DNA of 64,000 nt, taken from NCBI GenBank assembly GCA_050084515.1, contig CM114271.1:36580001-36644000 (forward strand). The letters run 5' to 3'. The translations under genes were made by a program, and so were the position numbers. Position 1 is the stretch's first letter. Each line of letters opens with the position of its first letter. This document shows, in pieces, positions 23,850 to 62,100 of the stretch. Source of the DNA: Blasia pusilla. Taxonomy: Eukaryota. The notes under the pieces were generated by a model. It was given only the letters and a program-made list of their open reading frames with translations. It did not search any database and was not told the DNA's origin.

Positions 23850-24765
23850 GTTTAGGTCCATTTCCTGACCCAAGTCATGACATCGTGATGCCTCTGATAG
23901 TGACGGTATTGTTGTCACTCATGTGGGGAATCCCATCGCTTGGTCTCGCTCATCGGCGTTGGGCTCCACCAACCTCTGTACCTGGTCATCCCAAACCAAA
24001 CTAAGTCCGGCCTCCTTGAATGGATAGGAAACAAGAAAACTCATCAATGTGGGAAAGGTTGCACGTGGCATGCCAATCCTATTGATCATAGTCAATCATC
24101 ATGCCTTAGTGCGTGTGAGCGAAGACTTGGATCCAAAATAGAATCCACCAACAAATCGGAGGGGTGCTCCACTCTCACATAAGCCCTTTGCAAAACCTCA
24201 TGTGGGACCAAGTTGGTCCACCAAAGATATGGGGGGTGTGCTCTAGAACCTACACTCGCCGCATCCAAAAACACTGCTAGGCCAATCCACGCCCGCACCT
24301 GATGTGCACTCGTTACAACGCGGGACCTTGAACCCCCAAAATCGGCACATTCTCACGAATGTATGCTGAAGAACAAGAGTGATGCTCTTGCAAGTGTCGC
24401 AAAATCTGCATCATCTCCCAAAACAATTTGGAACGAGTGTCACCTAACCCGCTACCTCGTCTAGCACTCGATTGGCCCTCACACCGCCAACCAACAATGA
24501 CAAAATCTATGGCCCCTACCCGCTCCAAGTCCTGCGCCCCCAGCAATGAAATATCCTATGGTAGGGAACTCTAGTATCCCTCGATAGCAGACGTAGACAA
24601 CAAGTCGAAAAAACGGAGGTGTAATTGCACAGCATGGTGAAGTGAAGCACGTCTCGCAACATCATCAATCTCCACATATAGGTATTGCTGCACGCGTACT
24701 CTTGTATGAAAAAAACAGCTAACCGGATGTTGATCCCTGCAAAGAGATCCAACACCCGAATACCC
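23850..24765 (-). pseudogene. DNMT3-like methyltransferase domain (subfamily 2)
   Basis: IRVLDLFAGI, YVEID, VGWRCEG (motif IV with P>R), RSKLFWEM, IRENV, AHPPYLWWTNL, LGQEMDL. Confidence 0.85.
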
Positions 24766-33500: not shown

Positions 33501-34860
33501 GATCTTACTTGTGGCCACATAAGTAAACTTAGTGACGCGCCTAAGTCGAATCGAGAGCGACCCAATAGTAGTGCGATTTGTGGACCAGGTAAACAGGTGT
33601 GATGTTTCTGAGAATGAGTCGAAAGAGTCTAAGGTTGCACACTTAGTTAGCTTATTTGATAGGTTAGTTCCTTGGAACTAGTCCAGGCTTATCGAAGATG
33701 AGAGGCTAATAATTCTAAGTGGGGCAAAGCGACAACTAGAGACTAAGAGGAATTGCGGGTTAGCCACGTAAGCGCAATTCAATGTCAAGGGTAGGCTGCC
33801 AGGAGACTTGACATAATAAAAGTTTGCGTTGCTGAGGGCATCAACCTCTAAAAGAGAGGTGAGTGTCGTGACCCTCATGACCAAACAAGTGCCAAGCGGA
33901 ACATCGGAACATTAGCGGGCTCACGCTAAGATGGTTTGCGCGTTGGAGTTGTCTCAAAGAGGAGACAAGAGACGAGACGCGAGCGAGAAGTCGCGTTTCA
34001 GATGTGATGGTCACAACTCAGAAACCTGGACCAAACGCGGAATGAGACTTGAAAGAAGTCGAGTCTAGGAAGTGGGTTGCCAAAGGAAAGATCCGGATTT
34101 GGAACGCCACTTGCGTTTGAGAGTTTCTGACTGTATTTCTAGCCATAACTTTTAGCGCCGAGATGCGTTTGGAGCAAATAAGGGTGCGTTGGAAATCTTA
34201 TAGAGAGCTGGTCAAAACGCACTAAAGATCGCTGCAAACGCATAAGCACCGGCCGAGATACAACCCGAAAACGACTGTAAGTGGAGTCGGGTTGAGGGCC
34301 ACAATGAAGGGCCCGAACCTCTTTTCCCAAAGGGGAGGGGTTATTGGAGAACCCCAGAAGTACTAGTAAGGGGGAAGGTCTCCGAGAGTGCTTGGAACCC
34401 AAACCCCACTTTGGGCGCCGCAGGGCGGCTCAAGGGCATGGAACGGAACGCGAGTTTGGGCGTTGGGTTGGAAAACCTGCACCAAGTCCATTGAGGCGAT
34501 TTTAGACATCCCTCTTGGATTTCACGACTCAATTACTTGGGTCTCGGTTCGGAACTCACACGAGGAGCGTTGAACAGTTGGGATCGCTAGGCGTGCAAGT
34601 GTCGTTTCAGATCCCTAGACTAACCAGGAAGTCTGTTCCAAGTCTTGAAGGACTTGCCATGTGTTGGGAGCTAGGAACTAAGGAAGGTTGAGCTTGACGA
34701 GATGCCGAGTTTAGGACTCGGTGGGTTGGAACGCCGGTTGGCCAAACCCGACTAATGAGAGTGCGTGTTTGGGTGCAGATCGGCGATGAGTTCGTGACCT
34801 ATTGAACGCACGCTTCCGCAACACTAAAGATTGACGTTCAAGGAGAGTAGGGGCGCGACA
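27566..34860 (+). mobile_element. Ty3/Gypsy chromovirus (Galadriel-like), full length, 5-bp TSD CTCAC
   Basis: LTRs 27566-28566 and 33864-34860 (TG...CA, about 4 substitutions and 2 indels). PBS TGGTATCAGAGC (tRNA-iMet) at 28569-28580; PPT at 33850-33863. TSD at 27561-27565 and 34861-34865. The clade call rests on motif similarity only. Confidence 0.93.
28820..33180 (+). pseudogene. Chromovirus gag-pol with C-terminal chromodomain, many frameshifts
   Basis: Zn knuckle CYKRGESGH, PR LLVDT, RT YPLPRIDDLF...YIDDILI, RNase H HTDASDFA...HEKELFAVVH, integrase SIVSDRDPKF, GPY motif and HPTFHVSLLK, chromodomain EFMVETIL...YLVKWKGY...ATW (about 32990-33120). Confidence 0.9.
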
Positions 34861-39200: not shown

Positions 39201-42200
39201 GGCGGTCGTTCTTCCTAGACGTGGTGGTAGAGGACCACCACCAACTAGAGGAGATGAAGCAAGAGCACCAGAGCCGTCACTTCTCTCACGCATCGATTAG
39301 TTGGAGTAGAGGATTGCTTCTATGATGATGATGCAGCTCAGGGAAGGCACGGAGCCGCGAGCAGCTAGTGTGGCTCCAGCTTCTACCTCTTACCTTGACG
39401 CGAGTGAGGATCTCGCTAGTATGGGCTTTATGTGTAGTGCAACTCAAGTTGAGGCGGCTGCAGTGGTGACTCGGGGTGCTGCAAGAGACACCGAGCCATC
39501 GAGAGGTGGAGTTGAGATTGACCCACCAGAGGGGACCGATGGGCGGCAAGCTAGGGTTCCACAGTCATTCACATTGTCGGAGGCACTACACACACCATCG
39601 ATGGTGCCTCGACGACCAGCGGTGCCTACAGCTCATGCAGGTATGTCGACGTCACAAGGAGTTGGAGTGACAACTCCTCTGCCGGCTCGACTGGAGTCCG
39701 TGTCGACCATAGTGTTGGAGGTGGCCACCAGAGTACGTGAGTAAGACTCCGCTATTTTCCGCCATAGAATTGGCGACATTGGGAGTTGGACCAACTGAGG
39801 TGTTCCGGCTGACCGCCACGTTGTTTGAGCATGGAGAGATGACTTCTTCTTGTTCAGAGGTAGTTGAGGAAGGGGTGGACTTGCCCTCAGAGCCGGTGCT
39901 CAGGACGTCCTCCACAGAGTCATGGCATGCGACGACGGCAAAGTTGGTAGATATGCCAGCTCGACCGGCCATAGAGCGAGCAGTGGTGACACTTGGAGTA
40001 GTGTTATTGGATTACCGAGCTAGAGTATTTCGCTTGGTTAGTCTGACGGGGACAGTATACCACCCGCAGCGCGTCCTACTTGATTCGGGAGCGCAGCCCT
40101 TGATGTTAGGGAAGGCGGCGTGTTTAGTGTTGGGGTTATGGAAAGCTGACATTGAGACTTATCCCTTCTAGATACAGACCTTGATTGGAGATGTCACCCA
40201 CGTAGTGTATGACTCGATAGGAGATAGTTGTTAGAGTCCAACTAGAGCATGCAACGGATAGTGCTATGGTGCGCACACGTGCGATTACAATACTAGCTGA
40301 GCCATACGATGTGTTGGTGGGTAGTACAGTATTATATCCCCTAGGATTCATCCTTGACTTCTGGGAGGAGACCGTTGCTTATCGGCCAGGGTTGCTGTCA
40401 GGTGACGAACGGATGAGTCAGTTACCTGTGCAATTTGCGGGACCAGGTGGTCGAGCACGAGATGAGTTTGTGACCACATTGGCAGCTTTCACAAGTAGTG
40501 TTAGCTGGCCAGGAGAGTTGTTGGAGGGGAACGCACATGCGGAGGATGTCCCAGTAGCAGATAGTCCCACGGAGAGATAGGCCATGGTGGCTGTCTCTTC
40601 CTATGTTGGCGAGACCTCTTCACCATTGTGGGGTATGACTCGAGAGCTACAGAGGAGTGCCGACGACCTCGTGAGGCACGCGTGGAGTCATGCCTTTATC
40701 CCGGAGCAACGAGAGTTAGTTGGCGATCGGGCTCCTGGGGTGGAGACGTTGACCCCACTGGATACCACAGCCATTGTGTGGCAGTGTCTTGAGGAGGGTG
40801 TTAGGGTGTTAGATCTCTTTGGGGGGATTAGCATCGGATTGGCTGTAGTATTGCAGGCAGGCATACGGGTGCATCAGTACCTTTATGTGGAGAGAGATGA
40901 GACTGCGTGGCGAGTATCATTACTTCACGTAGCGAGATTGGTCCAGAGGTATCCTGAGTTGTTGTTGGTATCTGCAATACGGGGATATCATCATACACTA
41001 CCTGCCGACATCTCTTTGGTGGGGGCGCAGGATCTGGATAGAGTTGGCACCATTCATTTGGTGATTGCTGGAGGGCCATGTTAGGGTCATTCATCAGTTG
41101 GCCGAGGGTTTGGATTGCAGGATCCAAGGTCATGGATGTTTTGGGAGATGCTGCGAGTAGTACGACACTTGCAAGAGAGTCAGAGATGCTCTCCGGCCTA
41201 CATTTTGGAGAACGTGCCATTGTTCGGAGACACTCATGCATGTGTGATGACGAGTGTGCATCAGATGAGGTCTTGGTTGGGACTTGCTGTGTTGTTAGAT
41301 GCAACGAGAGTTGGATCACGCGCCCATCGTCCATGATTGTGGTGGACAAACTTGATATCATCAGAGGTACTGAGTCGAGCATACGATGGAGTCCAGAGAG
41401 CACCACATCTCACAGTGGATGCTATTTTGGGCTCAGGGCATCGATCTTAGATGGTGATGCGGGATGATAGACCACCATTGGCGATGGCCAATAGGGTGGG
41501 GGAGTTGAGGACATCCTTACCTACGCTGCTAAGCTTCCCAGCATCCCATGCCTTTTGTCAGGGAGGGCCATGCATGATTTGGGATGAGGTGAACCGAGCA
41601 TTGGAGGAGCCTATAGCAGATGAGCGCGAGCGCACTATGGGGTTTGCTACAGGTACTACAGTGGTGCCAAGGATGACTGAGGCATCTCGGAGACAGGTGT
41701 TGGGCTAGGCAATGAACCTCAAGTGTCTCACATGGATAGTTAGCCTAGGTATGGCTAAGCAAAGATGGATGCGAGTCAGAGTGGAGTGACTATTGCAAAG
41801 GTGGCTAGGGTTGCTACATAGCAACCAAAGCCGGAGGTTGCGTCCTCTCCAAGCGAGGTCACGATGGAGACTTGGGAGCCTATGATAGGTCTCAAGTTGA
41901 TAGGAGGAGAGCGACGGCAAGTTCATAGGTTTTTGAGAGGGCATGTCAGTTGTTTTTCCTTCAATATGAGAGACTTGGGTATGCTGAAGGTCCCGGGATA
42001 TGGATTGACTTGGCTAGTGATACGCCGATCTTTCTTCGCCGATCTTTCTTCTTGGAGGGAGCCTTGATTCAGAGCAGGAGTCACGACTTGTTGGAGGCAC
42101 GACTTGTGGAGTTATCATATGGGGAGTATGCATTTTCCACAATCATGCCAGCGAAGAAGGATGTGTATGGCAATTGGACGGATAGGCAGATGTGTGGAGA

Positions 42201-44960
42201 TTACCGTCCTATCAACCGATAGACGAGGTCAGATCGGTACGCCATGCCTACTCCTGAGGAGATCTTTGATGCGGTAGGGCATGCAAAGATCTTAAGTACT
42301 TTAGATCTCCGTGTTGGCTATCATCAACTTCCTATCAGGTTGGAGGAAATGGAGAAGACAGCATTCTAGGGGATAGATCGGTTCGGGAGAGATAGCTTGT
42401 ATGAGTGGCGGTTCTTACCATTTGGATTGAAGAATGCGCCTGTAGAGTTTCAGAGAGTGATGGATAGGATTCTGGCTAGCTTGGATTTTGTACGATGTTA
42501 CATAGATGATATTCTTATCTTCAATTCCACCGTTAAGGAGCATGAGCGACACCTGGAGGAGGTGTTTTGGCGATTGCAGTTACATGGATTGAAGTTACAT
42601 CCAAGCAAGTGCCGATTCTTTCAGGAGCAGATTGAGTACTTGGGACACACCATATATCCGAGTGGGTTAGGCATTCAACACATAAAGGTGGAGGCCATTG
42701 CGCAGATTCCATGCCCTACAGATGTAAGTCGAGTCCGAGCGTTTCTTGGACTGACCAACTTCTATGGATGATATGTCAAGGGTTTTAGTGCGATCGCAAA
42801 GTCTTTGACCTTGTTGGCGAGACTTGATCAGGTTTGGTTGTGGGGAGATGATCAGGAGCAAGCATTTCAAGAGATCAAGGACATGTTGACGTCCTCACCC
42901 ATTTGACAGAGACCGGTTAGGGATCGCCTATTCCAGCTACATACGGATTTGAGCATGTTGGGTTTAGGAGCAGTGCTTACTCAGAGGGATGACGAGGAGA
43001 GGGAGTTTGTTGTGGCTTACACGAGCCGATCAAACAAGATTGCAGAGGCAAAGTACAGCTCTTACGAGGGAGAGTGCTTGGCTGTAGTGTGGGTTGTGGC
43101 ACATTTCAGGTGCTATTTATTCGGCAACGCTTTCACACTTATCACTGATCATCAACCGTTGAGGTGGTTGATGGAGTCCGACAAGCTTACGGGAAAGTTT
43201 TCCAAGTGAGCTCTATTACTACAGGAGTATGAGTTTGAGATGGTTCATAGGCCAGGTTGGCTGAACCAGGATGCGGATGGGTTGAGTCGTAACCCATGTC
43301 CGAGTCAGAGAGACAACACACGAGCTCGATGGCACGGAGAGAGTGATGAGGAGATGGTGCCTGGTTGGCATGCATTTGCCTATCCTTGTTGGTTGACTAT
43401 GGTAGGTCAGCCACAGGTGATGACTCCACTAGTGGGGTTGGATGATGAATCTTTGGATCCAGAGGTCAGTGAGAAGGCGACAGGTGGTCGTGATATCCAT
43501 GACGACGTGGAGGTTGTGGAGTTCTTGAGCATTGGCGTCATATCAAGCATAGTGAGTGCTAGGGAGCAGAATCAAATCCTACAGCGAGCCAGGAGGTTCA
43601 AGTGGGAGGGGACTCACATTTTGCGGGTATGGGGAGATGGTAGGATACGAATGGTACCTCATCCTTCCCACCGAGCACGTGTAGTGCAACATGCCCATGA
43701 GGAGTTGGGGTATTTTTGAGTAAAGCGTACTTACAGTTTACTCCAGGTTTAGTGTTGGTGGCGCGGCATGCATACTTGGGTACAGCAGTTTCTAGCCAAA
43801 TGTATGGTATGTCACAGAGTGCGAGCATCCTTCAATACTCCCACTCTGCAGTTACATCCTTTGCCGATTATGGGTTTAGGTTATCGGTGGAGTTTAGACT
43901 TTGTGGGACCTTTACCATTGACAAAGCATCATCACATGTACGTGTTGGTCATGGTGGAGCATTTCTCCAAGTGGATAGAGTTGGTGGCACTACCGGACAA
44001 GGCAAGCGAGGGAATTGCTTATGCATTTCTAGATCGTGTGCTTGGTCACTTTGGTGCATCGGTAGAGGTGTTGACTGACCAGGGTACCAAGTTCAGTGGA
44101 GAGTTTCAGGCCTTGTATGATCAGGCGCTGATAGATCACCGCACCATGTTCAGAGATCATCCTGAGGCGCATGGGTTGGCGGAGAGAGTAGTACAGATGG
44201 TGAAGAGAGGATTGCGCAAGTATGGCTTGCAGCGGGGACAGTTGAGGGTGTGGGAGCTACAGTTGCCATGGTTGGCTATGGCTATAGCTATCGCTTTAGT
44301 CGGCAGGCATCCTTGGCGTCATTTTCATCGTAATTTTTGCTCTTTGGGAGAGATCCAGATTTACCAGCAGCTATTTGACGTGACATGGCCGAGGTGTTAG
44401 ATTATTGATGATCCAGATGTGTGGGTACAAGTGTGTTCTCAGAGGATGGAGATTTTTTGTAGAGTTATGGCAACTCTACCACGAATAGCACGCCTACTTC
44501 AATGTATCTCTATGATGAGCAATAGCTAAGTTCTCGGAGGCCATAGGTTCTGTTAGAGCTATTTGACGTGACATGGCCGAGAACTTAGCTATTGCTTAGC
44601 ATAGAGATACATTGAAGTAGGCGACCATTCGTGGAAGAGGTTATCGTCCAAGGATTATGAGGTTTCATCCTAGAGATTATGTGTATTTACAGCAGGCAGC
44701 ATCCACGATGCAAGATGTCATTGTAGGGTGCACCATCCTACATGTGCGCGAGGTATTACCGACCGGAGACCTCATGTTGGAGGGACGGGATGGTATAGTT
44801 TGGAAGGATCATGTGCGCAATTTTGTGTCATGTTATCTTCCAAATGTAGATGGGACAATGGATCCAAGTACATGCAGGCTTGAGGTGTATGTTGTCCAAA
44901 TTTGCAAGGGGTGCAGCCACCATGTTGGTATGTGATGGTTGTTCTCGAGGGTGGCATATA
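36230..44960 (+). mobile_element. DNMT-Gypsy element (subfamily 3), 3'-truncated within the PHD finger
   Basis: Probable start TGTCAC at 36230. Gag from about 37770, PR RVLLDSGAQPLM at 40070-40105, DNMT 40800-41720, RT YIDD about 42500, RNase H, integrase 43768-44400, PHD remnant about 44885-44960. Confidence 0.85.
40800..41720 (+). pseudogene. DNMT3-like methyltransferase domain (subfamily 3)
   Basis: VRVLDLFGGIS, YVERD, IAGGPC*G (CAG>TAG), DPRSWMFWEM, YILENV, AHRP*LWWTNL, ERERTMGF, VLG*AMN. Confidence 0.87.
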
Positions 44961-45400
44961 AACAACACCGACACATGGCTCACATGTCCATCACCTGATC
45001 ACCACCCTGACCGATAAGAAACCGTCTCCTCCCAAAAATCCAGAATGAAACCAAGGGGATACAACACTGTACTCCCTACCAACACATCATACGACTCTGA
45101 CGGTGTCGTAATCGCCCAAGTGCACACCATCGCACTATCCCTCTCATGCTCTGGCTGGAGTCTAACCACCAACTCCTGTCGAGTCATGTACTGCATGGAT
45201 GATACGCCCCAAATAGAGGTCTGTATCTAAAAGGGAAAATGCTAAATGTTGCCTTTCCGTAAACCCAACGCCAAATACGCCGCCTTCCCTAACATCAAGG
45301 ACTGCGCTCATCAAGTAGGACGCGCTGCGAGTGGTACACTGTACTTATAGGACTAACCAAGCGAAACACTCTTGTTCGGTTATACAACAACACCACACAT
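44961..45400 (-). pseudogene. Inverted fragment of the protease region of another DNMT-Gypsy family member
   Basis: ESYDVLVGSTVLYPLGFILDFWEETVSYRSGW is homologous to, but not identical with, 40266-40400. Confidence 0.8.
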
Positions 45401-47819: not shown

Positions 47820-50800
47820 AACTTTTGGGGCAAGTTGGTGATTTTTCACGTGCAGCTCAAGCATTGGGTCCTCTTTCTCTGGCGGTTCCAAGTGCGGAAA
47901 CAATGGCTCTCTTAGCAGCTCTTCATCCTCCTTCAAGTGGCGATGCTCCACCTTTTGTAGAAGACTATACAACAGACCTTGACTTGGAGGTTTTCACAAG
48001 GGCTTTTTTGCATACTCCTCGCTTATCAGCAAGCGGGCTATCAAGGATGGTTTTTTAGCATCTCCGCTATTGCTTTATCCCAGCAGATTTAACAAGTGGC
48101 TTTGTCTCTCTATATGAGGAGGACAACTCGTGAGCCTCATTCCATTTTTTTGCTCCTTCTATGCCTGTGATACGCCCATTATCTATTCCCATCATGCTAC
48201 TTCTGGGGAATATGGTACTCTACAATCGGCTTGTGGCACACGTCAAGATGATCCCATGGGTGGCCCACTCTTTGCCATTGCCAATTTTCGTGCCCTTCGA
48301 GCATCAGCGCAAGCATTTCCATCTTGTCTTTTCCCTTCTATTGCTGATGACACTCACATTATAGGTCTTCCTTCTGAAGTGGTTCGTGCTTATATCTATT
48401 TCGTAGAGCAACTCTCTTTCTTAAACCTTAAAGTCCAACCTAGTAAATCTGGAGTATGGTCTCCTTTATGCCTTCCCTCAACATTCACCCCACCTACTCC
48501 TGATTTTCCCATCTACATTGAAGGGGTCCTTGGGGTCCCAATTGGCTTCATCGACTATGTCTCAAAGTTCTTGTATGAGGCCCTTTTGAAAGATGTGGAA
48601 TGGCTTTATTTGTTACCTCATCTAGGGGATCCCCAAGTGGCTTATGGGATTCTCTCCCAATTTTTTCTACGATGTCCTTCCTACCTTCTTTGCACTTGTC
48701 CTCCCACTTCAAGGTTCTTACATTGGTTGGCCTCTTTTGACACTTCTATCTTGGCAACTTTTGGTCAACTTCTTGGCCCAAATACCTTTGAGGGAGAGGA
48801 TGGTGTCTTTTTTTCACCACAAGCTATCTTGCCTATTTCTTTTGGAGGGGTGGGACTGTCCATCACAGTCGCAATCTGTGTCATAACCATACGGATTATG
48901 TCGTAGAGTATAGTGTGCTAGTAGAGGCCATACCTTATGTAGGGTCGTAGTGTCTAAGTAGAGATGCGGTTTCATACATAGGGTCGGGGGTTACTTAGTT
49001 GAGGGTGATCTTTCCAGTAGGGCCCGCTCTTAGGTTGGAGGATATAGTGTGGAGTGCACTCAAAGAACAATTAGTTCTTTGAGTTGAGCCTGTTGCGTTG
49101 GGAGTTAGCCTTGGTAGTGAGTAGAGCTCTTGGCTATGGTGGTTCCCGCAAGCTTCGATCTAGATTCTCCCATCGTGGAGTGGGTTTGGCTCAATTTTAT
49201 GTGATTCTATACGTGTTTTATGACGACAAGTCTTTCATAAATTTCACTCAAAGAATTGGAGTAGATCGATGGTAGCTTCGATTGTGGATCAGAAGGATCT
49301 GGTTAGGGCTGATTGTGTACTCAGCCATGGATGTTCGTGGCTTGTGGCCTATGTTGGAGGTAAGAATCTGGTACGTGGTTATTTCAGAAAGAAGCGCTTT
49401 GCTGAGAGCTTTCCAACGCGCTTTAGATGCCGGATTTCGTCAAGGGAGTTGGAAGTTATCAAGGATTGAAGATTCTGGTTCGTATTCAACGGTTTCTTGA
49501 TGTAGAGAGCTTGGAGTGTGTGGAGCATTGTGGATTTTTGCGTGCATGAATCTAGGTGGAAGCACTGTCGGATTTGCGATTTTGGAGGTGTATGGACATC
49601 AAGTTTGTCTGATTTTTAGCTCGGAGTACAGAGCTTGGTTGTAGCTGATTTTTTGTGGAGAGATAGTTATGGTGGTCAATTGAATTTTGGTCAAAATAGA
49701 TTCAATTTTGGTCAAGGATTTGTGGAGTAATTGTTGATCAAAATTTCTCGGACGAGCTCAAGGTCTGGCTATGGTGGACAACAGATCGGAGGGGTTGGTT
49801 GGTTGGTGACTCGTCCGTTGTTGGAGGCTTCGAGGCAACTCGTGGTAGCTCGGGGCGAGTGGGCGTGAGAGGCGGAGTAAGGAGTAAGGAGCAAGGAGCA
49901 AGGAGCAAGCAAGCAAGCTTGCTTGCTTGGGCGTGAGTCAGTTTTTGCAGGATTTGTGATTTGAGTGTTGCATAATTGGTCACCCATCTTTGGGCTATTC
50001 TGCCTGGAAGACGCTTAATTGCTGACTTCTTAACTATGTCACTGTACACACTGGTGTAGCTCATTTGGTGTTGTTTGGAGATGTGTTAGGCGCTTTATGC
50101 ATCTCAGGTTTTTGGTTGATGGACCTCTAGGGCATAGTACGGTCTCCATGCATGTGATATTTTCAGATGTTGCGAGTCCGACTAGCGCGTCATCGACCCG
50201 CGACGGAGTAGCTATTGCGTTAGAATTGTGTGGTGGGTTCTATGGATTTAGGGGGCGCCACGTTTCATGGATTGTGTTACCTTGATTTCCATTTGCGATT
50301 GGAGGGTTGTCGTTGGACTTCCTGTGTTTGGATCCCCTCCATCGTTGCTTCTTGCTTGCGCGCCCATTGTTAGGGTTGACGCAGATTTCCAGAATAGTGT
50401 TACTCATGTGTGCTACCGGTAGTGAGGTTGGAGTGATGACCAGTGGACCGTGGGAGGCTTCTTGTGGTGATGACAGGTTAGGTTGCCTACACCCATAGCT
50501 AGTAGAGCTAGAATAGTACAGCGACATCGACGTCACTTGGTTACTTAGTGGTGGTAATTTGGTGGTGGTGCGGCATCGGCGTTGGTCATCACGGAGCTGT
50601 CTGGTGGTCTGGTTGGCGACCGTGGTGCAGACAGTGATGGTTTTACACGGAGTGGATTGAGGTATCGGTTACCTTATCCACTTCCAACGGTTGATGAAGA
50701 GGAGGACGAGGGTGTTCCAAACACCGAGTCTTCTACGTTGTTATCGAGTGTTGCAGCTCCATTGATTTGGGACATGGACGGGATATATGGGGCCATGAAG

Positions 50801-53800
50801 GGCCCACGATGATACTCGGGTGCAGTGGGCACCATTGAGTTGGAGGACTTCATGCAGGAGTTTGATACACGTGGTGTGATATGCAGATGTTGGGGAACGC
50901 CACGTTGTTTACACCCTTATTGGCTTGGAAGGGGTTGTTTTAGCACTTGGAGGGACCACCCATGGATGATTACCATGAGTTTAGGAAGGACCATGTTGCT
51001 TAGATTGAGGCGTGGAGATAATCTGGTCTCCAGGCTATGTGTCTATCACCCATGGTGGTATTGGTAGTAGTGCTCCTACTATGCCAGCCAGCGCGACGTT
51101 GAGTGGTAGGAGTACGAGCCGGAGTGGGGATACCAGTGGAGGTACCCATGGAAGTACTAGTGGGGGTACTAGTGGAGGTACTAGTGCCCCACCATCATTC
51201 AGCCCGGTTGCAGAGTTCTTCAAGAGGTTGAAGAAGAACTATCAGGGATTGAAGATAGAGAAGTTGAGGAGTCTTCAGGAATTTGAGCGAAAGATTGGTG
51301 AGAGTCTTTGTGAGGCATACACTCGTATGCGACGCTTGATTTCGGTTACCCAGGGTGTGACTGAGGCTCAGGTAGTCCAGTTTTGGTATGGGATCTTGGA
51401 CAGAGAGTTGCGCCATAGGATACGTGATGCTACTCTTATGAATGATGATTCATCCACATTGACCCATGTGTTTGCTCTATCTGAGAAGATTGAGCTTAAC
51501 ATGGTGGAGGAGAGAGTGGTGACATCCGCATTCAGTAGGGATACAACTACTACTTCTCGTGTTCAATAGTCCACCTCAGAGTCTCGTAGTAGTGGTGGTG
51601 GTAGTAGCAGTGGGAGTCGTGGGGGGTACACACGACCTCAGTCAGGTCCTAGAGGGACACTTGTGCAGAGACCATTGCCTTCATTTTCTGCCCCGTAGCA
51701 AGGACAGTCATGTTGGACATGTGGAGGTGATCATGTTAGGAGGTTTTGTCCCCAAGAGGATGGGAGACGGACTTTGGAGGATGGGCCTCAGTCGCCCCCA
51801 ACTCAATGTGATCATTGAGGGAGACCAGGTCATCCTCGAGAGCGTTGCTTTGATCTTCATCTAGAGTTGAGATCAGGCCGCATCCGCGGTGGAGTAGCTC
51901 CGAGAGGCCGAGGAGGTAGACATGGTAGGGGTGGTAGAGGTGGACCAGTGGTTGGAGAGCCTATGGTGGCTACCCCTACCACTACGACAAAGTCAGCTAT
52001 GGCTGCCAGGATTGAGCAGTTGGAGCAGAAGTTGGCTACTATGGTTGGTATCCAACATAGAGCAGATTCGGGAGCAGGGGCTTCCACCTCTTATGGAGGG
52101 AATGATCTCTCTTATATGGCGAGTGCAAAGACAAAAGTTGAGGCATCACCTGCGATTCTGAGAGGAGCCACTCGAGCGTCAGAGCCACGTGGTGCTACTG
52201 TGGAGTTGGACCCACAAAGGGGTGAGGCTGGGAGGCAGGCTAGGCTTCCCCAGTCATTCTTGTTGTCTGAGGTGCTTAGGACTCCATCCATGGTTCCTAC
52301 GCAGCCTATTGAGCCTACAGTGGGGACTGAGGCATCTGCATTGCGTGTAGTAGACACGGATGCAGTATCCAGTGCAGTATTGCGGATGGCAACTTCAGTG
52401 TTGGGATTCCCATTATTTTCAACCACGGAGCTGATGGCTTTAGGAGTTGACTTAGCTTTTGTATTTCAGCTAGCAACCACGTTGTGTGAACGTGGGGGTG
52501 TTACTGCTACACGTGGTGAGGTGGATGAGGGTGTTGCGGTGGAGCGACCCTCTATGTCAGGTGTAGCATTGAGTACCAATGCTACTTGGCAGGAAGCAGC
52601 GGCGAAGATGGATGCATTACCAGCCCGGCCAGCCATTGATCGTGAGAGGCTTACACCTGGTGTATGTATGTTGGACAACCGGAGTGGGATATTCCAATTG
52701 GTGAGTCCTACAGGACAGGTGTATAGACTAGATAGAGTCTAGTGCCCAACCTTTGATGTTGGGAAAGGCGGCATGTATTGGTTTGGGTATTCGGAGGTCA
52801 GAGCTTGAGCCTTGCCCATTCCAGATTCAAACATCACTTGGAGGAGCCAATGATAGGTCTCAATTCATGACACGGGAGAAGTTGTCTGTACACTTGAGAC
52901 CAGATCATGCAACTGATAGCTCACGGTTGGGAGTACCTACAGTGGTCACATCAGCCGAGTCGTATGATGTACTAGTTGGAGGAGCAGTATTATACCCTAT
53001 GGGTTTTCAGATGGACTACTTGATTGAGACAGCGTCTTATAGATCTGGTTGGCACTCCGGGGATGGACGTATGAGCCAGGTTCCTGTGAGATTTACTTAT
53101 GGGGCTCAACCAGGAGGATCTTCCCCAACGGTGTTAGCATCTGTGGCTGGTTTTAGTGGAGTAGTCACTTGGCGAGGAGACTTTTTGGAGGCTAATCTTT
53201 CTGCTATGGATTCTTCTGTGCATGAGGAGGTAGAGGAGGTCCCTATAGTTTTGCAGCAGTGGAATCCTCATCGTTGGATGTGCCACTTTGGAGTTCAGAC
53301 CTTGAGAGGGTTGGTCATGTAGATTTGGTGACTGTTGGATGGCCATGTCAGGGTCATACACGTGCTGGTTGTGGTGAGGGATTACACGACCCTAGGTCTT
53401 GATTGTTTTGGGAGATGTTACGGGTGTTACGACATCTTCAGGTTCATCAGGCATGTGCTCCACCTTACATTCTGGAGAATGTTCCATTGTTGGGTGACAC
53501 TTGTACCCGGATGATGGCGAGTGTTCATGAGGTGCGGTCTTGGATTGGACCAGCAGTGTTGTTGGATGCAACGTGAGTCGGCTCGCGTGCACATCGTCCA
53601 CGCTTGTGGTGGACAAACTTGTTGCCTAGGGAGGTTCTACGTCAAGCATATGATGCAGTGTAGTAAGATCCTTGCCTTACAGTGGATAGTATCTTGGATA
53701 CTGGGCGACTTTCTCATGTGGTGAGGGTTATTGGTCGGTCACCCATGCCAGTGATGAACCATGTGGGCCAGCCTAGGATAGCACTACCCACATTTGTGAG

Positions 53801-56800
53801 TTTTCCCTTGTCACATGCCTACAGGGAAGGTGGTCCCGGGCTTGTATGGGATTCTCATGTGCGACAGTTGATGGAGCCTAACGTTGATGAGAGAGCGCAT
53901 GCGATGGGATTTGCTACTGGTGTGAAAGCGGTTGCTTCCATTTCTGAGGCTTCACGACATCATGTGTTGGGTCAAGCCATGGACCTGAATTGTTTGACTT
54001 GGATTTTGAGTCTTGGTATGGCCGAGCAGCGTCGACTTCAGACTATGTCTGTGGGTCTTCCACCCCTTGTGATGAGCTCGATAGCTACCGGGACAGTAGA
54101 GGCATCGGCTGGGGGCAAGGAAAATAGTATTTTGCATCCTTGGAGTAAATGGGATGTAATGGCTGGGCATGTGGAGTTGGTTGCTCATGGTGTGGAGGAG
54201 TTATTTGCTCAGATGATGGTGTAGCTAAGGGTGTACCATCTTGTGAGGGGGTTGCGTAGCAGCCAATGGCATCGTCCTCTCCCTCTAGTGTGCCAGTGGA
54301 GGAGACTTGGGAGCCATTACTTTGGCCCAAGCTTACGAGAGGTGAGAAACGACGCTTGACACAATTCCTACGTGCTTATAGGAGTTGTTTTGACTTTAGC
54401 ATGAAGGAGTTGGGTGCTTTGGTTGGACCCGGTATACGGATTGATTTGGCTAGTGATGCACCAATCTTCCATCGTCCCTATTGATATAGTGATATGGAGA
54501 GGGACTTGATTCAGAGTAGGACGTTGGAGTTGTCGCATGGAGAGTATGCATCAGCCACTCTCATGCCTACTAAAAAAGATGTGCAAAGCAACTACACAGA
54601 TAGGCGGATGTGTGGAGATTACCGTCCTATCAATCGGTAGACCAAGGCTGATAGGTATGCCATGCCTACACGTGAGGAGATCTTTGATGTGGTGGGACAA
54701 GAAAATATTTTTAGTACTTTGGATCTTCGGGCAGGATACCATCAGTTGCCGATTCGAGATAGTGACAAGGCCAAGACAGCATTTTGGGGTGTCAACTCTC
54801 ATGGCAAGGATTTTTTGTACCAGTGGAAATTCTTACCCTTTGGGTTGAAGAATGCACCTGCCGAGTTTTAGAGAATGATGGACAGGAGAGAGCTTTTGTG
54901 GAACTCAAGGCCCAGTTGGTGATGGCGCCTATCTTGAGGAGACCTATCAGAGGGCACCCATTTCAGTTACACACTGATTGGAGTAGGTTGGGACTTGGAG
55001 CGGTGTTGACACAACATGATGATGAGCACATGGAGTTTGTGGTGGCCTATGCAAGTCGTTCGAATAATACAAATGGAGTCGCTATAGTTCATATGAGGGA
55101 GAGTGCTTGGCAGTAGTGTGGGTTGTGGCACACTTTAGGTGTTACTTGTTTGGCACACAATTTACCCTTGTTACTGATCACCAGCCGCTCAAGTGGTTGA
55201 TGGAGTGTGACAAGCTTACAAGGAAGCTTGCACGGTGGGCTCTTATCTTACAAGAGTATGACTTCCAAGTGGTACATAGACTTGGAGTTGCCAACTTGGA
55301 TGCTGATGGGTTTAGTAGGAACCCATGTACTAGCCAAGAGGATGCAACTGGGGCTAGATGGCATGGCGAGGTTGATGAGGAGATGGTGCCATTTTGGCAT
55401 GCATCCGCCTTTTTATGTTGGTTAGGGATGAACTCTAGTATGGAGGACCACATGACATCTTACTCTAGTCGGAGGGTAGATGGCCAGCCTACAGATCCTA
55501 AGGTTGGAGATGGTGGTACGGATCAACGTGATATTCATGATGATGCGTTGGTGTTGGAGTTCCTACGGACCAGTAGGGTGCCATGCATAGTGAGTGCCAA
55601 GGAGCGAGACCGTTTTCTTCAACGTGCTAAGAGGTATCGATTGGAGGGAACACATATTCTCCGTGTGTGGGAGGATGGTAGAGTACGAGTAGTGCCGCAT
55701 TTGGCTCAGAGAGAGCACATTGTGCGACATGCCCATGAAGAGTTGGGACATTTTGGGATAAAGCGTACGTATAGCTTACTCCTTGGTCAGTATTGGTGGC
55801 GTGGCATGCATACTCAGTGTAGATTGGTATCACATTGTATGGTTTGTGACCGGGTGAGGGCATCATTCAATGCCCCTACACCACAGTTACACCCCTTGCC
55901 TATTATGGGGTTGGGTTACCGTTGGAGTGTGGACTTTGCGGGACCGTTACCGTTGACTGTACGACATCATCGATATGTGTTGGTGATGGTGGAGCACTTC
56001 TCCAAGTGGATTGATTTGGTGGCATTACCTAACAAGGCAAGTAAGGGAATGGCGTATGCGTTTCTTGATAGAGTGCTTAGTCATTTTGGTGCACCAGCTG
56101 AAGTGCTTACCGACAAAGGTATAGAGTTTCAGGGTGAGTTTTAGGTCTTGTGTGACAAGGCATTGATTGATCATCGGACCACGTCTCGAGATCATCTAGA
56201 GGCGGATGGTTTGGCTGAGCATGTGGTTCAGACGGTGAAGAGGGCATTGCGCAAGTATGGCCTACAGAAGGGGCATCTTGGAGACTGGGATATTCAGTTG
56301 CCATGGTTAGCCATGGGGTATAGGTTCAGTCGCCAAGCATCCTTGGCTTCCTTCTCACCTTATTTTCTGTTATACAGCCGAGATCCAGACTTGCTCGCAG
56401 CAATTCGTAGGAAGTCTAGTGAGGTGGTGAACCTTGATGACCCAAAGATGTGGATGAGAGAGTGTTCTCAGCAGAGCTTTCAGAGCTCTTTCGGAGAGTT
56501 ATGCCAACAGCCTTTGAGAATCTTGCCATTGCTCAACACAGGGATACGTTGCGGTATGCAACCATTCGGGGTGGAGGTTATCGACCATCGATTCGTAGGT
56601 TCCATGTGGGGGACTATGTCTATTTGCAGCAGATTGCACCGACAACGTTGGATGTGACGGCAGGCCGTACTATTTTACGAGTGCGAGAGGTGTTAGTTTC
56701 TGGAGTTCTCATGTTGGAGGGTCGTGATGGAGTTGTTTGGAAGGACCATGTGCATAATTGTGCGCCATGTCATCTTCCAAATATAGATGGTACTATTGAC

Positions 56801-58824
56801 CCAAGGTTAGCCATGATACGTGCTAGCTTGAGGTGCATGTTGTGTGGGTCTGCTGGTAACGCAGCCCGTCTGTTGGTGTGTGATCCGTGTTCTAGGGGTT
56901 GGCACATGATGTGTTTGACTCCACGTATGTATGTTGTTCCTACTGGAAGGTGGGTTTGTCCTCGATGTACTTAGGAGAGGTAGATGACTTGATCTTTGCA
57001 TGATATGGATTACAGATGTGCGACTAACGATTGGGCAACCTAGCACCCGGCCTTTTGATATACCACGTAGGTGTATAGCATGTAGTAGATGTATAGGGCT
57101 ACCTGGGAGTTAGAGAGACCTAACCGCCAGTTAGGGGGGCAAGTTGTGGTACACTTGTGTTTGTGTATGCTCTCGTCTATGTTATGTATGTATGTGAGTA
57201 TGATATGTCAGCGATGTATGTTGTATGACGATGTGGATTTGCACGACAGTTGTCATGACCATACGAATTATGTCGTAGAGTATAGTGCTAGTAGAGGCCA
57301 TACCTTATGTAGGGCCATAGTGTCTAGGTAGAGATGCAGTTTCATACATAGGGTTGGGGGTTACTTAGTTGAGGGTGACTTTTCCAGTAGGGCCCGCTCT
57401 TAGGTTGGAGGATATAGTGTGGAGTGCACTCAAAGAAGAGTTAGTTCTTTGAGTTGAGCCTGTTGCGTTGGGAGTTAGCCTTGGTAGTGAGCAAAGCTCT
57501 TGGCTATGGTGGTTCCCACAAGCTTCGACCTGGATTCTCCCATCGTGGAGTGGGTTTGGCTCGATTGTATGTGATTCTATACGTGCTTTATGACAGTAGG
57601 TCTTTCACAAATTTCAGTTGTGGTACACTTGTGTTTGTGTATGCTCTCGTCTATGTTATGTATGTATGTGAGTATGGTATGTCAGCGATGTATGTTGTAT
57701 GACGATGTGAGTATAGGTTTCTCCAAGGAGATACAACTATCTTGATGGATCATATCGCCCATGTAGAGGAGGGACACTTGTTATTTCAACAACAACTGAG
57801 ATCTGCACGAGCTCTTCTTCCTCTTGCTACATAAGCAATTCTACCCCCTTTCAAACAACTAATTACAAAAGGGCTTGATCGACTTCAAGAGCATATCTCC
57901 GAGAATCTGCATCAAATCAACTTTTCCAGCATTCTCTCCGAGGCATCCTCTGACGCTAATGGAGCTCGTCTACGTTCATGTGTGGGTACCAAAGTGGGGG
58001 CGTGGCTTACTGCAAATCCTCTTATTCTTCCATTTTGTCTTCCTCAAAGTATATTCTCGACAGCTTTGCGGTTACGTCTTGGACTTCCCCATCCTTCTCT
58101 CTTATGTGTCATTAGAGAGGCGGTAGCATCGGCGGCTCGTACTGCATGATACATCGTTGGGCAAGAGCAACTCCATGTCCTACCTTCAACCACACAAGCA
58201 ACCTCTCGTCGGAGAGGGGATCTTGTTATGTCTCGAGGTGGATTCCGAACACTACGTGATGTGGTGGTTTTTGATCCAACACGTTCTGACTTGGTGTGTC
58301 GAGCCGCACATACCAAAATTTGGCAGTCGAAGTTGCAGCAAGAATCAAGGAGTTAAGTTATGTTGTGAGACATGCGACTGATGGATTTATTCCTTTTGCA
58401 GTGGAAGTATTGGGTCATTTACATGTGTCTTTTGATACTTTCCTGAAAGCATGTGCTCACCACTCCCTCAAGAATCATCACCTTCCCCCTTCTCGTAGTC
58501 CTTCTCTCTGGCTAGTTACTACTTATTTTCGGCAATGCATCTTAGTGGCCTTACAACGTGCACAAGCCTTGGCATTGATACGTGGTGCGGAGGTGGTGGG
58601 GGATCGCTCGCCTCGTCGTCTATTCACGTCTGACCAACCACTCTTGTTATTGTCAGATTTGTTTCAGGCTATCAATCGTGTAACTCGTTGAGCCGATGTT
58701 TGCGTTGGCTTGTTGCCATTTTCTTTTTGCATTCTTTTATGCATTTTTTGACTCCTCTTTTGAGTTGTTATTTCCTTTCTTTGTCCTATTTTGAGATTTA
58801 CTTTACAATAAAGTGGATATATAT
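47820..58824 (+). mobile_element. 5'-truncated CRE-like non-LTR retrotransposon (RT plus restriction-like endonuclease), split by DNMT-Gypsy copy 2 into 47820-48878 and 57710-58824
   Basis: RT GTRQDDPMGGPLF, SIADDTHI, VLGVPIG, LPISFGGVGL. C-terminus GAWLTANP, ALRLRLGLP, RRGDL...DVVV, FIPFAVEVLG, VALQRAQA. AATAAA at 58807 and a short (TA)n tail. Flanked by a 77-bp duplication. Confidence 0.82.
48879..57709 (+). mobile_element. DNMT-Gypsy copy 2 (same subfamily as copy 1), split direct repeats, internal deletions
   Basis: A1 48879-49246, PPT 57133-57142, B1 57145-57248, A2 57251-57616, B2 57619-57709 (last ~13 bp lost, so no TSD is visible). Deletions of about 400 bp remove DNMT motifs I-III (about 53297) and the RT YIDD region (about 54883). 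PHD intact. Confidence 0.92.
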
Positions 58825-59199: not shown

Positions 59200-62100
59200 T
59201 CGAGTAGCTATGATAGACATGTTGATCAATCAAATAATTTTTTAATAGTTTCTTGGTGTGTCGGAGTTTCGTTTTCCTCTGCAGGCACCATGGCCCCAGC
59301 CCGTCTTCCTCCTCTCTTCCGGCGCGCAAATGGCGATCGTCACTGCAGCGGACTCCCTGCGGCGCGAAGACAGATGATGTTCAAACGCGATCGAGATTTG
59401 CGGGTAACGGACGGACTCAACTCAATGCCTTGGCAAATTCTCTGTTCGACGGGAACACCGGAAATACAGTACAAGAGGAGGGAACTGACCGCCGTGTGGT
59501 GGTGGCGCGGTCACAGCGGTGCAGGTGGCGGGTGGCGGGTGCTCAAGCGGTCTCAGATTGCAGCCGCACAAAGCTGGCAGGACTCAGGAGTGTAGGTTCT
59601 GGTAGCTGTAGGTTGGTCAGCTGACATCTCCGAAGACCAAGGAGGACTTTCATTTTCATTTTCATTTTATTTTTTTATTTTTTTTTTAAATTTTAATGCA
59701 TTCGGTGTATCTATTGTACTTGCTCGACGTATGGTCTCTGGACACGAAGTAGCGCGCGCGAGCCCACGCGTCTGCCAGTCGAGCGCCGTAGTTCCATCGC
59801 ACAACCGAAACACTTGTTTCGGTTGCGAATTCCTGTCCACGACGCTAGGCCGGGGCCGAGGCAGCCGTGGGTCCGGATCCAGCCGAGGGAAGGGGCGGGC
59901 AGACGCTGGAGGTCCCGCGGGGCTGCCCGCTGCTCTCCCTATCCCAGATCTGAAATCCCCCGGAACGCCACAAAGAAGGAGTGAATATTGTTCAGCTAAG
60001 GTTTGCTTTTCGGCACTTTCTCGCGCATTTAGGCTAGGAAGGGGCGGCCTGTGGTCGGCCCGGCCGTCGTCGTCGCTCGATCCACCAGGAAACGGTGGGC
60101 CCCGGCACCACAAAGTGCCCTCCCGCCCTATACTCCCGCACACGCGTACGTCCTGTGTGCACGATCTCATTCCGGACGCGAAGAAGCAAAACGGTGCGCC
60201 ATACGCTAGATGCTTATGCGGGAAACGACGGATTAGCCGAAAGAGGTACTGGCAGAGAGGATTTAACGCGAGGCGACAGAGGGTCGACAGAATAATGGGC
60301 GAACAGCATAGTCTAAGTCAATTTTCAATTCGAGGGAGCAACAGAAGAAAGCAAGAAAGGACGTCGTAGATGAGTGGGGCCCGTGTAGCCAGACGTCAGA
60401 AGGACCAAGGCTTTCGTTTCTTTTCTTTTCTTTTCCTTTTCTTCCGGAACTTCGCAAGGCACAAACCATTACAGTTACAGCGGCAGGCGCAGGATAACAG
60501 CGCGCCATCGCCGGCCGGTTAGCTGTTACTGTCACGTGCACGCTTCGCTTCCTTCTTCTTCCTTTCCTTCCTTCGTTCCGCCTTTCCCTCGTCCAACTTT
60601 TTCCCACAACCCTTCCTCTGCTTCTACCTCCGGGACTAGAGGAGAAAATTCAAAAGTAGCCAACGCATACCAAACAAGTGTCACGACTATGCGCCTCTTG
60701 TTCGGCGCGCAGGTCGGCTCAGTTGGCCTGGGCCCTGACGTGTCGGCTTTAGGAGCTCCTGAGTCCTGACTTGCAGTCCCGGGACCCGGCCGGATTCGGT
60801 CTTTAACTCGGCCGGGCAGGCCTTGTTTACTGAGACTCGGCGAATGGGTGCGCTAGAGTCGCTTCAATGCACATGGAATTTTATGCTGCAAAGTGCGAGA
60901 CGCGAACATCCGTCTCCCGGTTGCTTTATCGAGTCGTTCAGTGATTCTGCCAGCCGGCCGGCCGGCCGGCCGGCGATTGAGCTTGGTTGCTCGTTTGCTT
61001 GGCAATGCTTGCTTGCATCATCCATGATCCAGACGGACGCCCCACTACAACCGGGCAACTCCAGCTTCAAACCGAGCGTCTTGCCGTCTTGGACGTGCAT
61101 GCCGAGCGGCCCTATGGTACCGTGCTTACTGTATTCCTCGTTCGACCCGACATGGACAACGGTTTTTCTATCCCTCTCTGGCTTTCGTCTCCATTCTCCA
61201 CACTACGCTCTGAGCATCTTCCTCACTCTACTCTACGTTCGGTCCATGTCCGTCTCGATGCGCCCACATGATATCGATCGATGCATTTGGGAATGGTCTG
61301 ACATACTCCGCTGGACTCGAGCTGTAGTAATCAAGGCCTGCCAGAACGAACTCTACTGGCTAATTGGAGGATGTACCATGGACGGATGGGGCTCGATCTC
61401 CTTGGCGTGAGCTCTGACCAGATAGGTCAAGTCTTCGTTCATGTGGAGGTAGATCCCCAGAGTCCCAGGAACGGTAGCCGGATTTGATCAAGCTTTCCCG
61501 ATTTCTTGCGACTCGGTCAGCCCGACTTCGATGGATGGGGCTCGGTGATCCTCTCTCTCCGTGGCCTCTGACCAGAAAGGTTAAGTTGCCTTTCAAGTGG
61601 AGGTAGAAACCAAAAGTCCAAGCAAGGATAGACCGATTCGATGCAGCTTTCCCGATCGATCGATTTCTCTGGAGTTAGTCTTCCCCAACTTGGATGGGTG
61701 CCGTTGGATGGTTGATGAGTGAGAGTCGTCGGTCTGCTCAGTAGTGGAAAGCACGGGAAAAAAGTGCAGATGGACGAGAATACTGCGCTTCGGAGGTCAG
61801 ACTGCGCTCCAGATGGGGTTTCTTTCGTGCCTCCCCGTTGTCTTCGCCAGGAACAAACATACGCGAGGCTGAGGACTTTTCTTGCCTCATTCGACCAGTT
61901 TAGTCGAAGTCAATCGGTGAAGGGTCTGGATCTCTGGAAGGAGATTCACAATCGCCCCTAACCATCTTGAACAATCGGTTAACGGCGCCTGGGATTGAGA
62001 AAGGTCAGGTTTCGAAAGCAAACTTTATGCTTAATCAGACCCATTGCCAGATTAGCTGATCTGTCGAGAATGTCACTCTCGTATGGACCTCACAAAAGTC

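Follow-up and report, generated by a model that had tools for sequence, protein, structure and literature searches.

The 64,000-nt stretch of Blasia pusilla DNA analysed here (the window; contig CM114271.1, positions 36,580,001 to 36,644,000) contains four copies of a family of Ty3/gypsy retrotransposons. In one of these, copy 2, we found that the integrase ends in a true PHD finger, which is its last domain and occupies the position held by the chromodomain in chromoviruses. Comparison with related sequences suggests that in living members of the family this finger would bind the N-terminal tail of histone H3 and tether the integrase to nucleosomes in place of a chromodomain, a reading to which we assign a probability of about 0.6.

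The finger of copy 2 lies at 56834-56968 on the plus strand, with its first and last cysteines at 56834 and 56968, and corresponds to residues 132-176 of P0001, a 177-residue open frame (56441-56974) that holds the finger within its last 46 residues. All eight C4HC3 zinc ligands are present at canonical spacing (CMLC-x11-CDPC-x4-H-x2-C-x14-CPRC), and the finger is followed by one threonine and then by the TAG stop codon (56972-56974, plus strand) that ends the pol frame. A preliminary description of this DNA, made from the sequence letters, had placed an intact C4HC3 finger rather than a chromodomain at the integrase C-terminus, as the last domain before the stop, and had proposed a PF00628 scan as a check; both parts of the claim were borne out, and the scan returned a match covering the whole profile (positions 1-47 of 47; E = 1.2e-9; 38.5 bits against a cut-off of 24). 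A six-frame search of the window with a general C4HC3 pattern retrieved this finger and nothing else, and none of 200 shuffles contained a match. The finger shares its reading frame with the integrase C-terminal beta-barrel (SH3/Tudor-like; 56615-56767, plus strand), whose strands are predicted at residues 59-109 of P0001 in the AlphaFold2 (AF2) model and whose region is aligned by the family profile to the integrase of Ty3 Gag-Pol (7q5b). Mean pLDDT of the model is 84.3, with values of 92-97 across the finger, which is predicted to start about 22 residues after the barrel.

Pfam scans covered all plus-strand open reading frames (ORFs) of at least 50 residues in copies 1 and 2. No match to the chromodomain family PF00385 was detected among the ORFs scanned, 10 from copy 2 and 34 from copy 1. 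As a positive control, the same profile matched a separate element of the window, a chromovirus, at 32999-33124 (E = 1.8e-11). The chromodomain of that chromovirus lies about 25 residues past its beta-barrel, so that the two readers occupy like positions in their respective proteins.

The copies were defined by self-BLAST of the window, the ends of copy 2 being set from the alignment of its long terminal repeats (LTRs). Copy 2 (48879-57709, plus strand) is a decayed element with several frame breaks, which carries a DNA methyltransferase (DNMT) remnant in addition to the finger. Its reverse transcriptase (RT) and RNase H are found at 54308-55259 (plus strand) in broken frames, as detected by tblastn and by PF17919 and PF17917 in ORFs 54766-55116 and 55068-56144, and the H2C2 zinc domain and DDE core (rve) of its integrase occur at 55704-56132 (plus strand) in ORF 55068-56144 (PF17921, E = 1.8e-12; PF00665, E = 7e-10), giving the Pfam order RNase H, H2C2 integrase finger, integrase core, PHD. 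Copy 1 (10347-20057, plus strand; LTRs 94.3% identical) is a decayed copy of the same element, 90-93% identical to copy 2 by self-BLAST, in which Pfam reveals the order gag (a weak match, below threshold), C5 DNMT, RT, RNase H, integrase core and PHD; its RT, RNase H and integrase span 16369-18944 on the plus strand (tblastn; PF00078, 1.8e-19; PF17917, 9.6e-29; PF00665, 2.1e-12). The finger of copy 1, at 19157-19291 (plus strand; PF00628, E = 4.2e-8), had been described as the same intact domain; the domain is indeed the same, but alignment shows Phe in place of Cys at its seventh zinc ligand, and the sequence upstream is interrupted by an in-frame stop and a 5-bp indel. Copy 3 (40806-44963, plus strand; self-BLAST and tblastn) is a diverged relative, at about 72% nucleotide identity, with DNMT, RT, RNase H and integrase, and is truncated inside its PHD. 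The remnant that had been noticed there at about 44885-44960 was recovered at 44868-44960 (plus strand) and preserves the finger only as far as the His, then breaks off; its second Cys is a Ser. Copy 4 (20339-24286, minus strand), a related element detected by tblastn with P0193, is truncated in the integrase core and hence has no PHD left.

Copies 1 and 2 are dead, their pol being broken by many stops and frameshifts, and only the finger of copy 2 is locally intact; the window copies are fossils, none of them functional. In both copies 1 and 2 the PHD is out of frame with the integrase core. Programmed frameshifting and an independent PHD ORF were both rejected as explanations, since the shifts stem from 5-bp indels that differ between the copies and occur at separate sites. 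The break in either copy is bridged by unbroken sequence in the other, and the ancestral frame therefore ran straight from the integrase into the finger.

The element matches the streptophyte Gypsy-Dnmt3 type: the pol order (RT, RNase H, integrase), the upstream DNMT, the repeats and the homology to the Klebsormidium nitens protein P0292 all fit. The pol of KnitGypsy-Dnmt3, a Gypsy element of K. nitens, was reported to include a Dnmt3-like domain (de Mendoza et al. 2018, PMC5890265), and the name "streptophytes (Gypsy-DNMT3)" is used in bioRxiv 10.64898/2026.05.21.726589. P0292, with DNMT, RT, RNase H and integrase, aligns to 99% of the RNase H-integrase query from the window at 47% identity (E = 1.5e-84). 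P0292 itself stops inside the barrel, and a second K. nitens protein, P0204, which is 78.7% identical to it over a 361-residue overlap, runs on into a PHD finger. The window element thus shares with KnitGypsy-Dnmt3 its Ty3/gypsy nature, the location of the DNMT within pol and a DIRS-like arrangement of the repeats. It differs in its host affinities, K. nitens being a charophyte alga whereas the best named matches of the window element are from Marchantia and Calypogeia; and while PMC5890265 places the acquisition of the DNMT "in the K. nitens lineage", DNMT-bearing relatives occur here in liverwort, Closterium and chlorophyte records. A PHD finger is mentioned neither in the text nor in the three text supplements of PMC5890265 (its figure lay outside the text search). 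Membership in the Chlamyvir clade was considered and rejected; the papers on that algal clade give it a chromodomain and never mention a PHD.

The repeats of both copies are split direct repeats of the form A1 ... B1-A2-B2, in which the 3' LTR is bracketed by two instances of a 94-112 bp block that has no counterpart ahead of the 5' LTR. In copy 2 (all on the plus strand), the 5' LTR A1 (48879-49246; TG...CA) is 92.9% identical over 368 bp to the 3' LTR A2 (57251-57616), as determined by self-BLAST and LTR alignment, and block B1 (57142-57235), just 5' of the 3' LTR, is 98.9% identical over 94 bp to block B2 (57616-57709), its repetition past the 3' LTR seen in the repeat alignment. Copy 1 has A1 at 10347-10714, B1 at 19470-19581, A2 at 19587-19954 and B2 at 19954-20057 (plus strand; B1/B2 86.6% identical over 112 bp). 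The B1/B2 pair was also present in 4 of the 14 related metagenome loci examined, one of which has A1 as well, and two of which, L058 and L059, may be one element; the repeats were located at 10568-11228 in L076, 8843-9434 in L019 and 10727-11181 in L058. A figure legend in PMC5890265 says of KnitGypsy-Dnmt3 that its repeats are "the same as that of a DIRS retrotransposon", without explanation. Split direct repeats are a DIRS/PAT-like feature, that is, one of tyrosine recombinase elements, yet the window elements have a DDE integrase.

The layout seen in the window is widespread. A HMMER scan of 1.84 billion representatives with P0001 (integrase C-terminus plus PHD) yielded 4678 relatives with E <= 1e-3, of which 226 reached E <= 1e-30; in most of the top 150 the alignment starts near residue 12 and extends to the finger's end. 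Named relatives include proteins of Marchantia polymorpha (86% and 81% identity), Calypogeia fissa (80%), Sphagnum fallax (65%) and Klebsormidium nitens (about 50%), and others come from Volvox, Pleodorina, Chromochloris and Haematococcus. On best hits alone, the most probable host would be a liverwort. All of the long relatives scanned (30/30) have the integrase zinc finger followed by the PHD, and four of them also carry PF00145. Two complete relatives, P0297 and P0193, have the order (protease,) DNMT, RT, RNase H, integrase, PHD, and 3-6 residues past the finger. All eight ligands are kept in 239 of 267 family proteins, and the commonest spacing, 11/4/14, is that of the window finger.

A second search used the RNase H-integrase ORF without the finger as query. 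Among the 120 relatives listed, PF00628 was found in 87, PF00145 in 17, a Dam-type domain in 3 and PF00385 in none. We inspected 16 of the 33 relatives that lack PF00628: six end inside the integrase core, two have a Cys/His-rich tail with a partial or divergent PHD-like pattern, and four Closterium proteins (P0331, P0328, P0321 and P0341) run through the beta-barrel and end without a PHD. These zygnematophyte relatives close on a short basic tail, and two of the four have a DNMT. Judged from the relatives as a whole, the integrase-terminal PHD is the ancestral state of the Gypsy-Dnmt3 family and of a larger green-lineage clade without chromodomains.

Beside this common layout, three PHD-bearing relatives (P0356, P0357 and P0358) also have a Dam-type adenine methyltransferase domain (PF05869) in precomputed Pfam annotation. 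The DAM-LTR elements of bioRxiv 10.64898/2026.05.21.726589 have chromodomains, and PHD fingers are unmentioned in its text (supplements and figures lay outside the text search). In chlorophyte-type relatives such as P0028, P0034 and P0206, 150-600 residues follow the finger, which may represent an extra integrase module or read-through of the gene model; no Pfam family among those listed had its best stretch in this tail (E 1e-6; E 1e-3 for P0206).

The class of the finger was judged by a PDB sequence search, by a profile of 48 family members and by a fold search with the AF2 model. By all three, the finger is closest to readers of the unmodified H3 tail. The sequence search was led by the fingers of CHD4 (PHD1/2), KMT2C/D, DPF2/3, WSTF, KDM5A/B (PHD1), ATXR5, PHF21A, BAZ2A/B, UHRF1 and AIRE, and the 48-member profile yielded the same list, its upstream part matching the Ty3 integrase. 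Solved host readers are 36-49% identical to the finger and superpose on its predicted structure at 0.6-2.1 Å over 45-54 columns (DPF3b, 0.6-0.8 Å; MOZ, 1.0 Å; BAZ2A bound to unmodified H3K4, 1.1-1.3 Å; ATXR5 bound to H3, 1.9 Å; BHC80, 2.1 Å). When the whole model was used, the matches were Tudor-PHD cassettes (PHF1, MTF2, UHRF1) with poor root-mean-square deviation, owing to the barrel-plus-finger layout. Several of the top PDB entries are titled as complexes with unmodified H3, and the closest solved structures are nearly all histone-tail complexes. Neither the 60 matches listed for each PDB search nor the fold search included a finger that we take to be an H3K4me3 reader. The cage Trp of H3K4me3 readers stands at position -2 relative to the His ligand; the window finger has Gly at that position and Trp at -1.

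In the family consensus, derived from 193 unique fingers, the most conserved positions other than the ligands are the residues of the hydrophobic beta-strand, the Asp after Cys3 (90%) and the Pro, Gly and Trp of P-x-G-x-W (99, 91 and 97%). In related fingers, the strand, this Asp and P-x-G-x-W form the groove for the H3 tail. These same features make up the likeness to the host readers CHD4, KDM5A/B PHD1, DPF2/3, BAZ2A/B, ATXR5, PHF21A, UHRF1 and AIRE, from which the window finger differs in its fusion to a DDE integrase and in belonging to a subfamily without the acidic loop. The family consensus has an acidic D-D-E stretch in the loop between Cys2 and Cys3, and related readers hold unmodified K4 by such acidic residues. 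In the window subfamily the D-D-E stretch is gone, basic residues have been gained in the loop, and a basic residue stands before Cys1. Fingers that lack an acid at every candidate position account for 9 of 51 unique terminal fingers, the window's own among the nine, against 1 of 161 with extended tails (212 unique fingers in all). The groove for the H3 N-terminus looks conserved in the window lineage, and the part expected to sense unmethylated K4 does not.

The preliminary description had likened the finger to the PHD-like ADD domain with which host DNMT3 senses unmethylated H3K4. The window finger is a single canonical PHD and not an ADD domain, which combines a GATA-like finger with an atypical PHD, and no DNMT3 or ATRX ADD chain appeared among the 60 matches listed in each of the sequence and profile PDB searches (19 and 47 more were unlisted). 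Given this result, and the independence of PHD and DNMT among the relatives, an origin from the DNMT3 ADD domain was rejected and the link stands as an analogy only. The accompanying idea that the finger reads unmethylated H3K4 fared better in part: its nearest solved relatives are readers of unmodified H3 and no cage Trp stands at -2, but the acidic loop residues are absent.

In the mechanism we propose, the PHD finger of living members would bind the N-terminal H3 tail on nucleosomes, and this binding would tether the complex of integrase and cDNA to chromatin, the finger doing what is done by the chromodomain in chromoviruses and, for retroviruses, by host reader proteins. Family resemblance points to a preference for H3 tails with unmethylated K4, which would steer insertions away from H3K4-methylated active promoters rather than toward one specific heterochromatin mark.

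Several observations weigh against this proposal. Acidic residues are absent from the window finger both over the first eight loop positions between Cys2 and Cys3 and immediately before and after Cys1, so that one expected determinant of K4me0 reading is missing, and the preference for K4me0 is less certain for the acid-free subfamily, which includes the window copies. The histone state ascribed to each solved relative is taken partly from PDB titles and partly from general knowledge. The Closterium relatives, which pass through the barrel and end without a PHD, imply that the finger is dispensable in some lineages. Clustering of the copies in DNA rich in transposable elements (TEs) is equally explained by selection against genic insertions after integration. 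Selective constraint, estimated as the dN/dS ratio (nonsynonymous over synonymous substitution rates; Nei-Gojobori, NG86) on 501-bp segments of related loci, is also uneven, although the pairs are non-independent and the finger comprises only 45 codons. Between the window copy and its closest family (14 pairs), dN/dS was 0.58 for the PHD, above the 0.23 of the integrase C-terminus, in a comparison of decayed copies. In one moss-type family that has the acidic loop (28 pairs), the two values were 0.15 and 0.16, which counts in favour of the proposal, and within the closest family (91 pairs) they were 0.81 and 0.63, as expected of decaying copies; most of the copies compared carry 0-3 stops.

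Other accounts of the finger can be set against these data. It could be a chance Cys/His pattern, or a piece of a host gene captured by these copies and no part of the element, and two Marchantia gene models that are annotated as host proteins, P0173 and P0176, do hold the same segment. These models yield PHD matches only, however, and look like annotated TE fragments, while the finger stands in frame with the integrase, recurs in three diverged window copies and in retroelement polyproteins that number in the hundreds and range from algal to moss sources, and has a pattern that no shuffle of the window produced; a chance pattern or host-gene fragment is excluded. An unlikely but more serious candidate is a role outside histone binding, in which the partner of the finger would be nucleic acid, a chromatin protein of the host, or the Gag or RT that the element itself encodes, or in which the finger would aid nuclear retention or multimerisation of the integrase. 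Ligands other than histones occur for some PHD fingers, a loop that has lost its acids and gained basic residues would suit such a ligand, and the finger of the window lineage is less constrained than the adjoining integrase segment. Yet the non-ligand positions most conserved in the family are those known from the H3-tail groove, and the closest solved structures are overwhelmingly complexes with histone tails.

The presence of reader and writer in one pol frame, in the window family as in P0193 and P0297, raises a further account, in which an ADD-like PHD would sense unmethylated H3K4 and direct or license the element's DNMT on the new copy or on nearby chromatin, instead of determining the integration site. 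The resemblance of the finger to H3K4me0 readers would accord with such a coupling, as would the DNMT fragment, which across its length aligns best with DNMT3A/B. We nevertheless regard it as unlikely, for RT, RNase H and integrase lie between the DNMT and the PHD and a protease is present, so that the two are probably separate mature proteins; PHD was far commoner than DNMT among the integrase relatives listed (87 against 17 of 120); Closterium elements have a DNMT without a PHD; and the matches listed in each PDB search were free of ADD-type chains. Tethering of the integrase through the H3 tail is thus the reading we favour. A wider scenario can be built on H3-tail tethering, though taken whole it is doubtful: an ancient Ty3/gypsy lineage, spanning chlorophytes to bryophytes, would combine an H3-reading PHD as the targeting module of its integrase with DIRS-like repeats and one DNMT that predates the two pol architectures described below. 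Reader and writer would serve a stealth strategy of inserting into H3K4me-free nucleosomes and methylating the new copy, and in the bryophyte subfamily the disappearance of the acidic loop would signal a change in histone specificity.

The DNMT of copy 1 is found at 14985-15932 (plus strand) as a C5 DNA methyltransferase domain interrupted by stops, with motifs I, IV (PCQ) and VI (ENV) in the tblastn alignment. PF00145 matches it at 15096-15560 (E = 6.6e-10), upstream of the RT as in P0292, P0193 and P0297. With PF00628 and PF00145 both matched within copy 1, the preliminary description was right to place a chromatin-reader-type domain and a DNA methyltransferase in one retroelement. In copy 2 a remnant persists at 53277-54029 (plus strand; tblastn with P0193 residues 70-329), in which the first part including motif I is missing, with a gap of about 400 bp relative to copy 1. 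Against the PDB, the longest alignments of the copy 1 domain were to DNMT3A/B, weakly (E about 1e-4), and M.HaeIII scored slightly better on a short stretch; the DNMT of P0270 retrieved no PDB DNMT at E 1e-6. Published work on related elements suggests de novo DNA methylation by their DNMT.

Two architectures were apparent among the relatives. In the streptophyte type the DNMT precedes the RT and the finger ends the protein. In the chlorophyte type RNase H and integrase are separated by some 700 residues that include the DNMT, and the finger is followed by a long tail of unassigned sequence. Comparing chlorophyte-type P0040, P0088, P0100, P0101 and P0236 with P0193, P0270, P0292 and P0297, we found the DNMTs to be 29-41% identical over 238-431 residues across the two types and 30-44% identical within the streptophyte type. 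Given this comparable identity, we set aside two independent captures, which the two positions in pol had suggested; one DNMT lineage carried by the TEs, having moved within pol, is at least as probable. The distribution of the two domains indicates that PHD and DNMT are independent modules, the PHD being much the commoner and each occurring without the other among the relatives.

The window as a whole is a nest of TEs, made up of the four copies of the PHD family, a young chromovirus, a CACTA-type transposase and tandem repeats. The chromovirus (27566-34860) has LTRs at 27566-28566 and 33864-34860 that are 99% identical, an SH3_Tf2-1 domain at 32735-32923 and the chromodomain mentioned above (32999-33124). 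It belongs to a separate lineage, its RT being only 26-38% identical to that of the PHD element, and sits between old copies of the PHD family, so that both reader types occur in one TE nest. The CACTA/En-Spm-type transposase is an intact-looking ORF of 493 residues at 581-2062 on the minus strand (PF02992, E = 1.6e-55), and the tandem repeats, detected by self-comparison at 6775-10329, have a unit of about 350 bp with 75-85% mutual identity. An ORF at 59596-60366 had no usable match in an atlas look-up.

Copies 1 and 2 had both been described as inserted inside other TEs. The TE-rich surroundings agree with this, and the 5' edge of copy 2 cuts an ORF (48118-48876) that has features like those of reverse-transcriptase-associated clusters, a lead from the atlas only; a split host element or an empty site was demonstrated for neither copy within the window. 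Copy 1 lies between the tandem repeats and the antisense copy 4, and its possible 4-bp target duplication (GCTT) is weak evidence. When the flanks of the two copies were compared with 80 related loci, no nucleotide match and one protein-level match (upstream of copy 2) were obtained.

Three RNA-seq runs whose coded species label agrees with that of the best-matching DNA run were aligned to the window element at a likeness of at least 97%, giving 405-461 aligned reads per run. In nearly all of them the first mate was on the minus strand, which corresponds to sense RNA if the library was of the usual stranded kind, as we assume. Depth was highest in the 3' part (40-51 at 56325-56625), reached 16-23 over the bin of the finger and was mostly below 3 in the 5' half. 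Most reads were 95-99% alike to the window and differed from it at the same places in every read, and reads of all three runs shared a joint from 55490 to 56502 that skips 1011 bases and has 10 other letters between, a joint absent from the DNA contigs of run X1. Given these shared differences and the joint, the reads come from other copies of the family and not from copy 2; the data show that the family is transcribed somewhere in the sampled organism, and nothing more. The source of these reads is probably a copy that lies elsewhere and has been rearranged, perhaps one of the annotated Marchantia "genes" with integrase tail and finger (P0173, P0176).

Among chromatin readers that retrotransposons bring along for target choice, the chromodomain is the textbook example. 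In PMC6673714, Gao 2008 is cited for chromodomains directing Gypsy integration, and Kapitonov and Jurka 2003 and Perez-Alegre 2005 for the statement that many retrotransposons encode PHD fingers able to read histone tails. The window element resembles chromoviruses (PMC3350952; PMC6317226) in having a small chromatin-reader domain past the integrase beta-barrel, at a similar distance and with a proposed tethering role; it differs in that the reader is a PHD zinc finger, PF00385 being absent from all 120 relatives listed, and that its expected ligand is the H3 N-terminus and not H3K9me. Among green algae, PMC8557442 presents the PHD as a common accessory domain in Chlamydomonas TEs, and PMC9940879 reports on a PHD-bearing Gypsy element, active in Chlamydomonas, whose intergenic insertion was 2.6 times that expected and for which its authors suggest a link of the PHD to targeted or harmless insertion.

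That element, Gypsy-7a_cRei / REM1 of Chlamydomonas reinhardtii, is like ours a green-lineage Gypsy LTR element with a PHD in Gag-Pol, and volvocine algal polyproteins are among the relatives of the window element. Compared by description only, it differs in that it is not reported to carry a DNMT, and in that the figure legend lists the PHD before INT, so that the position may not be the same; the chlorophyte relatives of the window element have a long tail past the finger, unlike the window. EpiLTRs (bioRxiv 10.64898/2026.05.21.726589) also unite a chromatin reader with DNA methyltransferases in one retroelement (chromodomain, DAM and DNMT), but their reader is a chromodomain, their DNMT is sister to DNMT4 and lies at the 3' end of pol, and they belong to different lineages. 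PHD fingers in Gypsy elements, and a possible role for them in targeting, are thus already in print. A PHD is unmentioned in two surveys of plant LTR elements, and no description of a PHD finger on Gypsy-Dnmt3 elements or in liverwort retrotransposons was found in the text of the literature (figures and bioRxiv supplements lay outside the search).

New here are the reach of the Gypsy-Dnmt3 family into liverwort- and moss-type sequences and the integrase-terminal PHD on Gypsy-Dnmt3 elements, which comes in two loop variants that predict different histone specificities. The finger represents a second type of reader in the integrase position of the chromodomain, in a layout found in hundreds of sequence clusters from green algae and bryophytes. 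If it does tether the integrase to the H3 tail, it would offer a natural comparison with chromoviruses, both types being present in one window, and the family would provide a tractable system, in Marchantia or Chlamydomonas, for how TEs use the epigenetic marks of their hosts.

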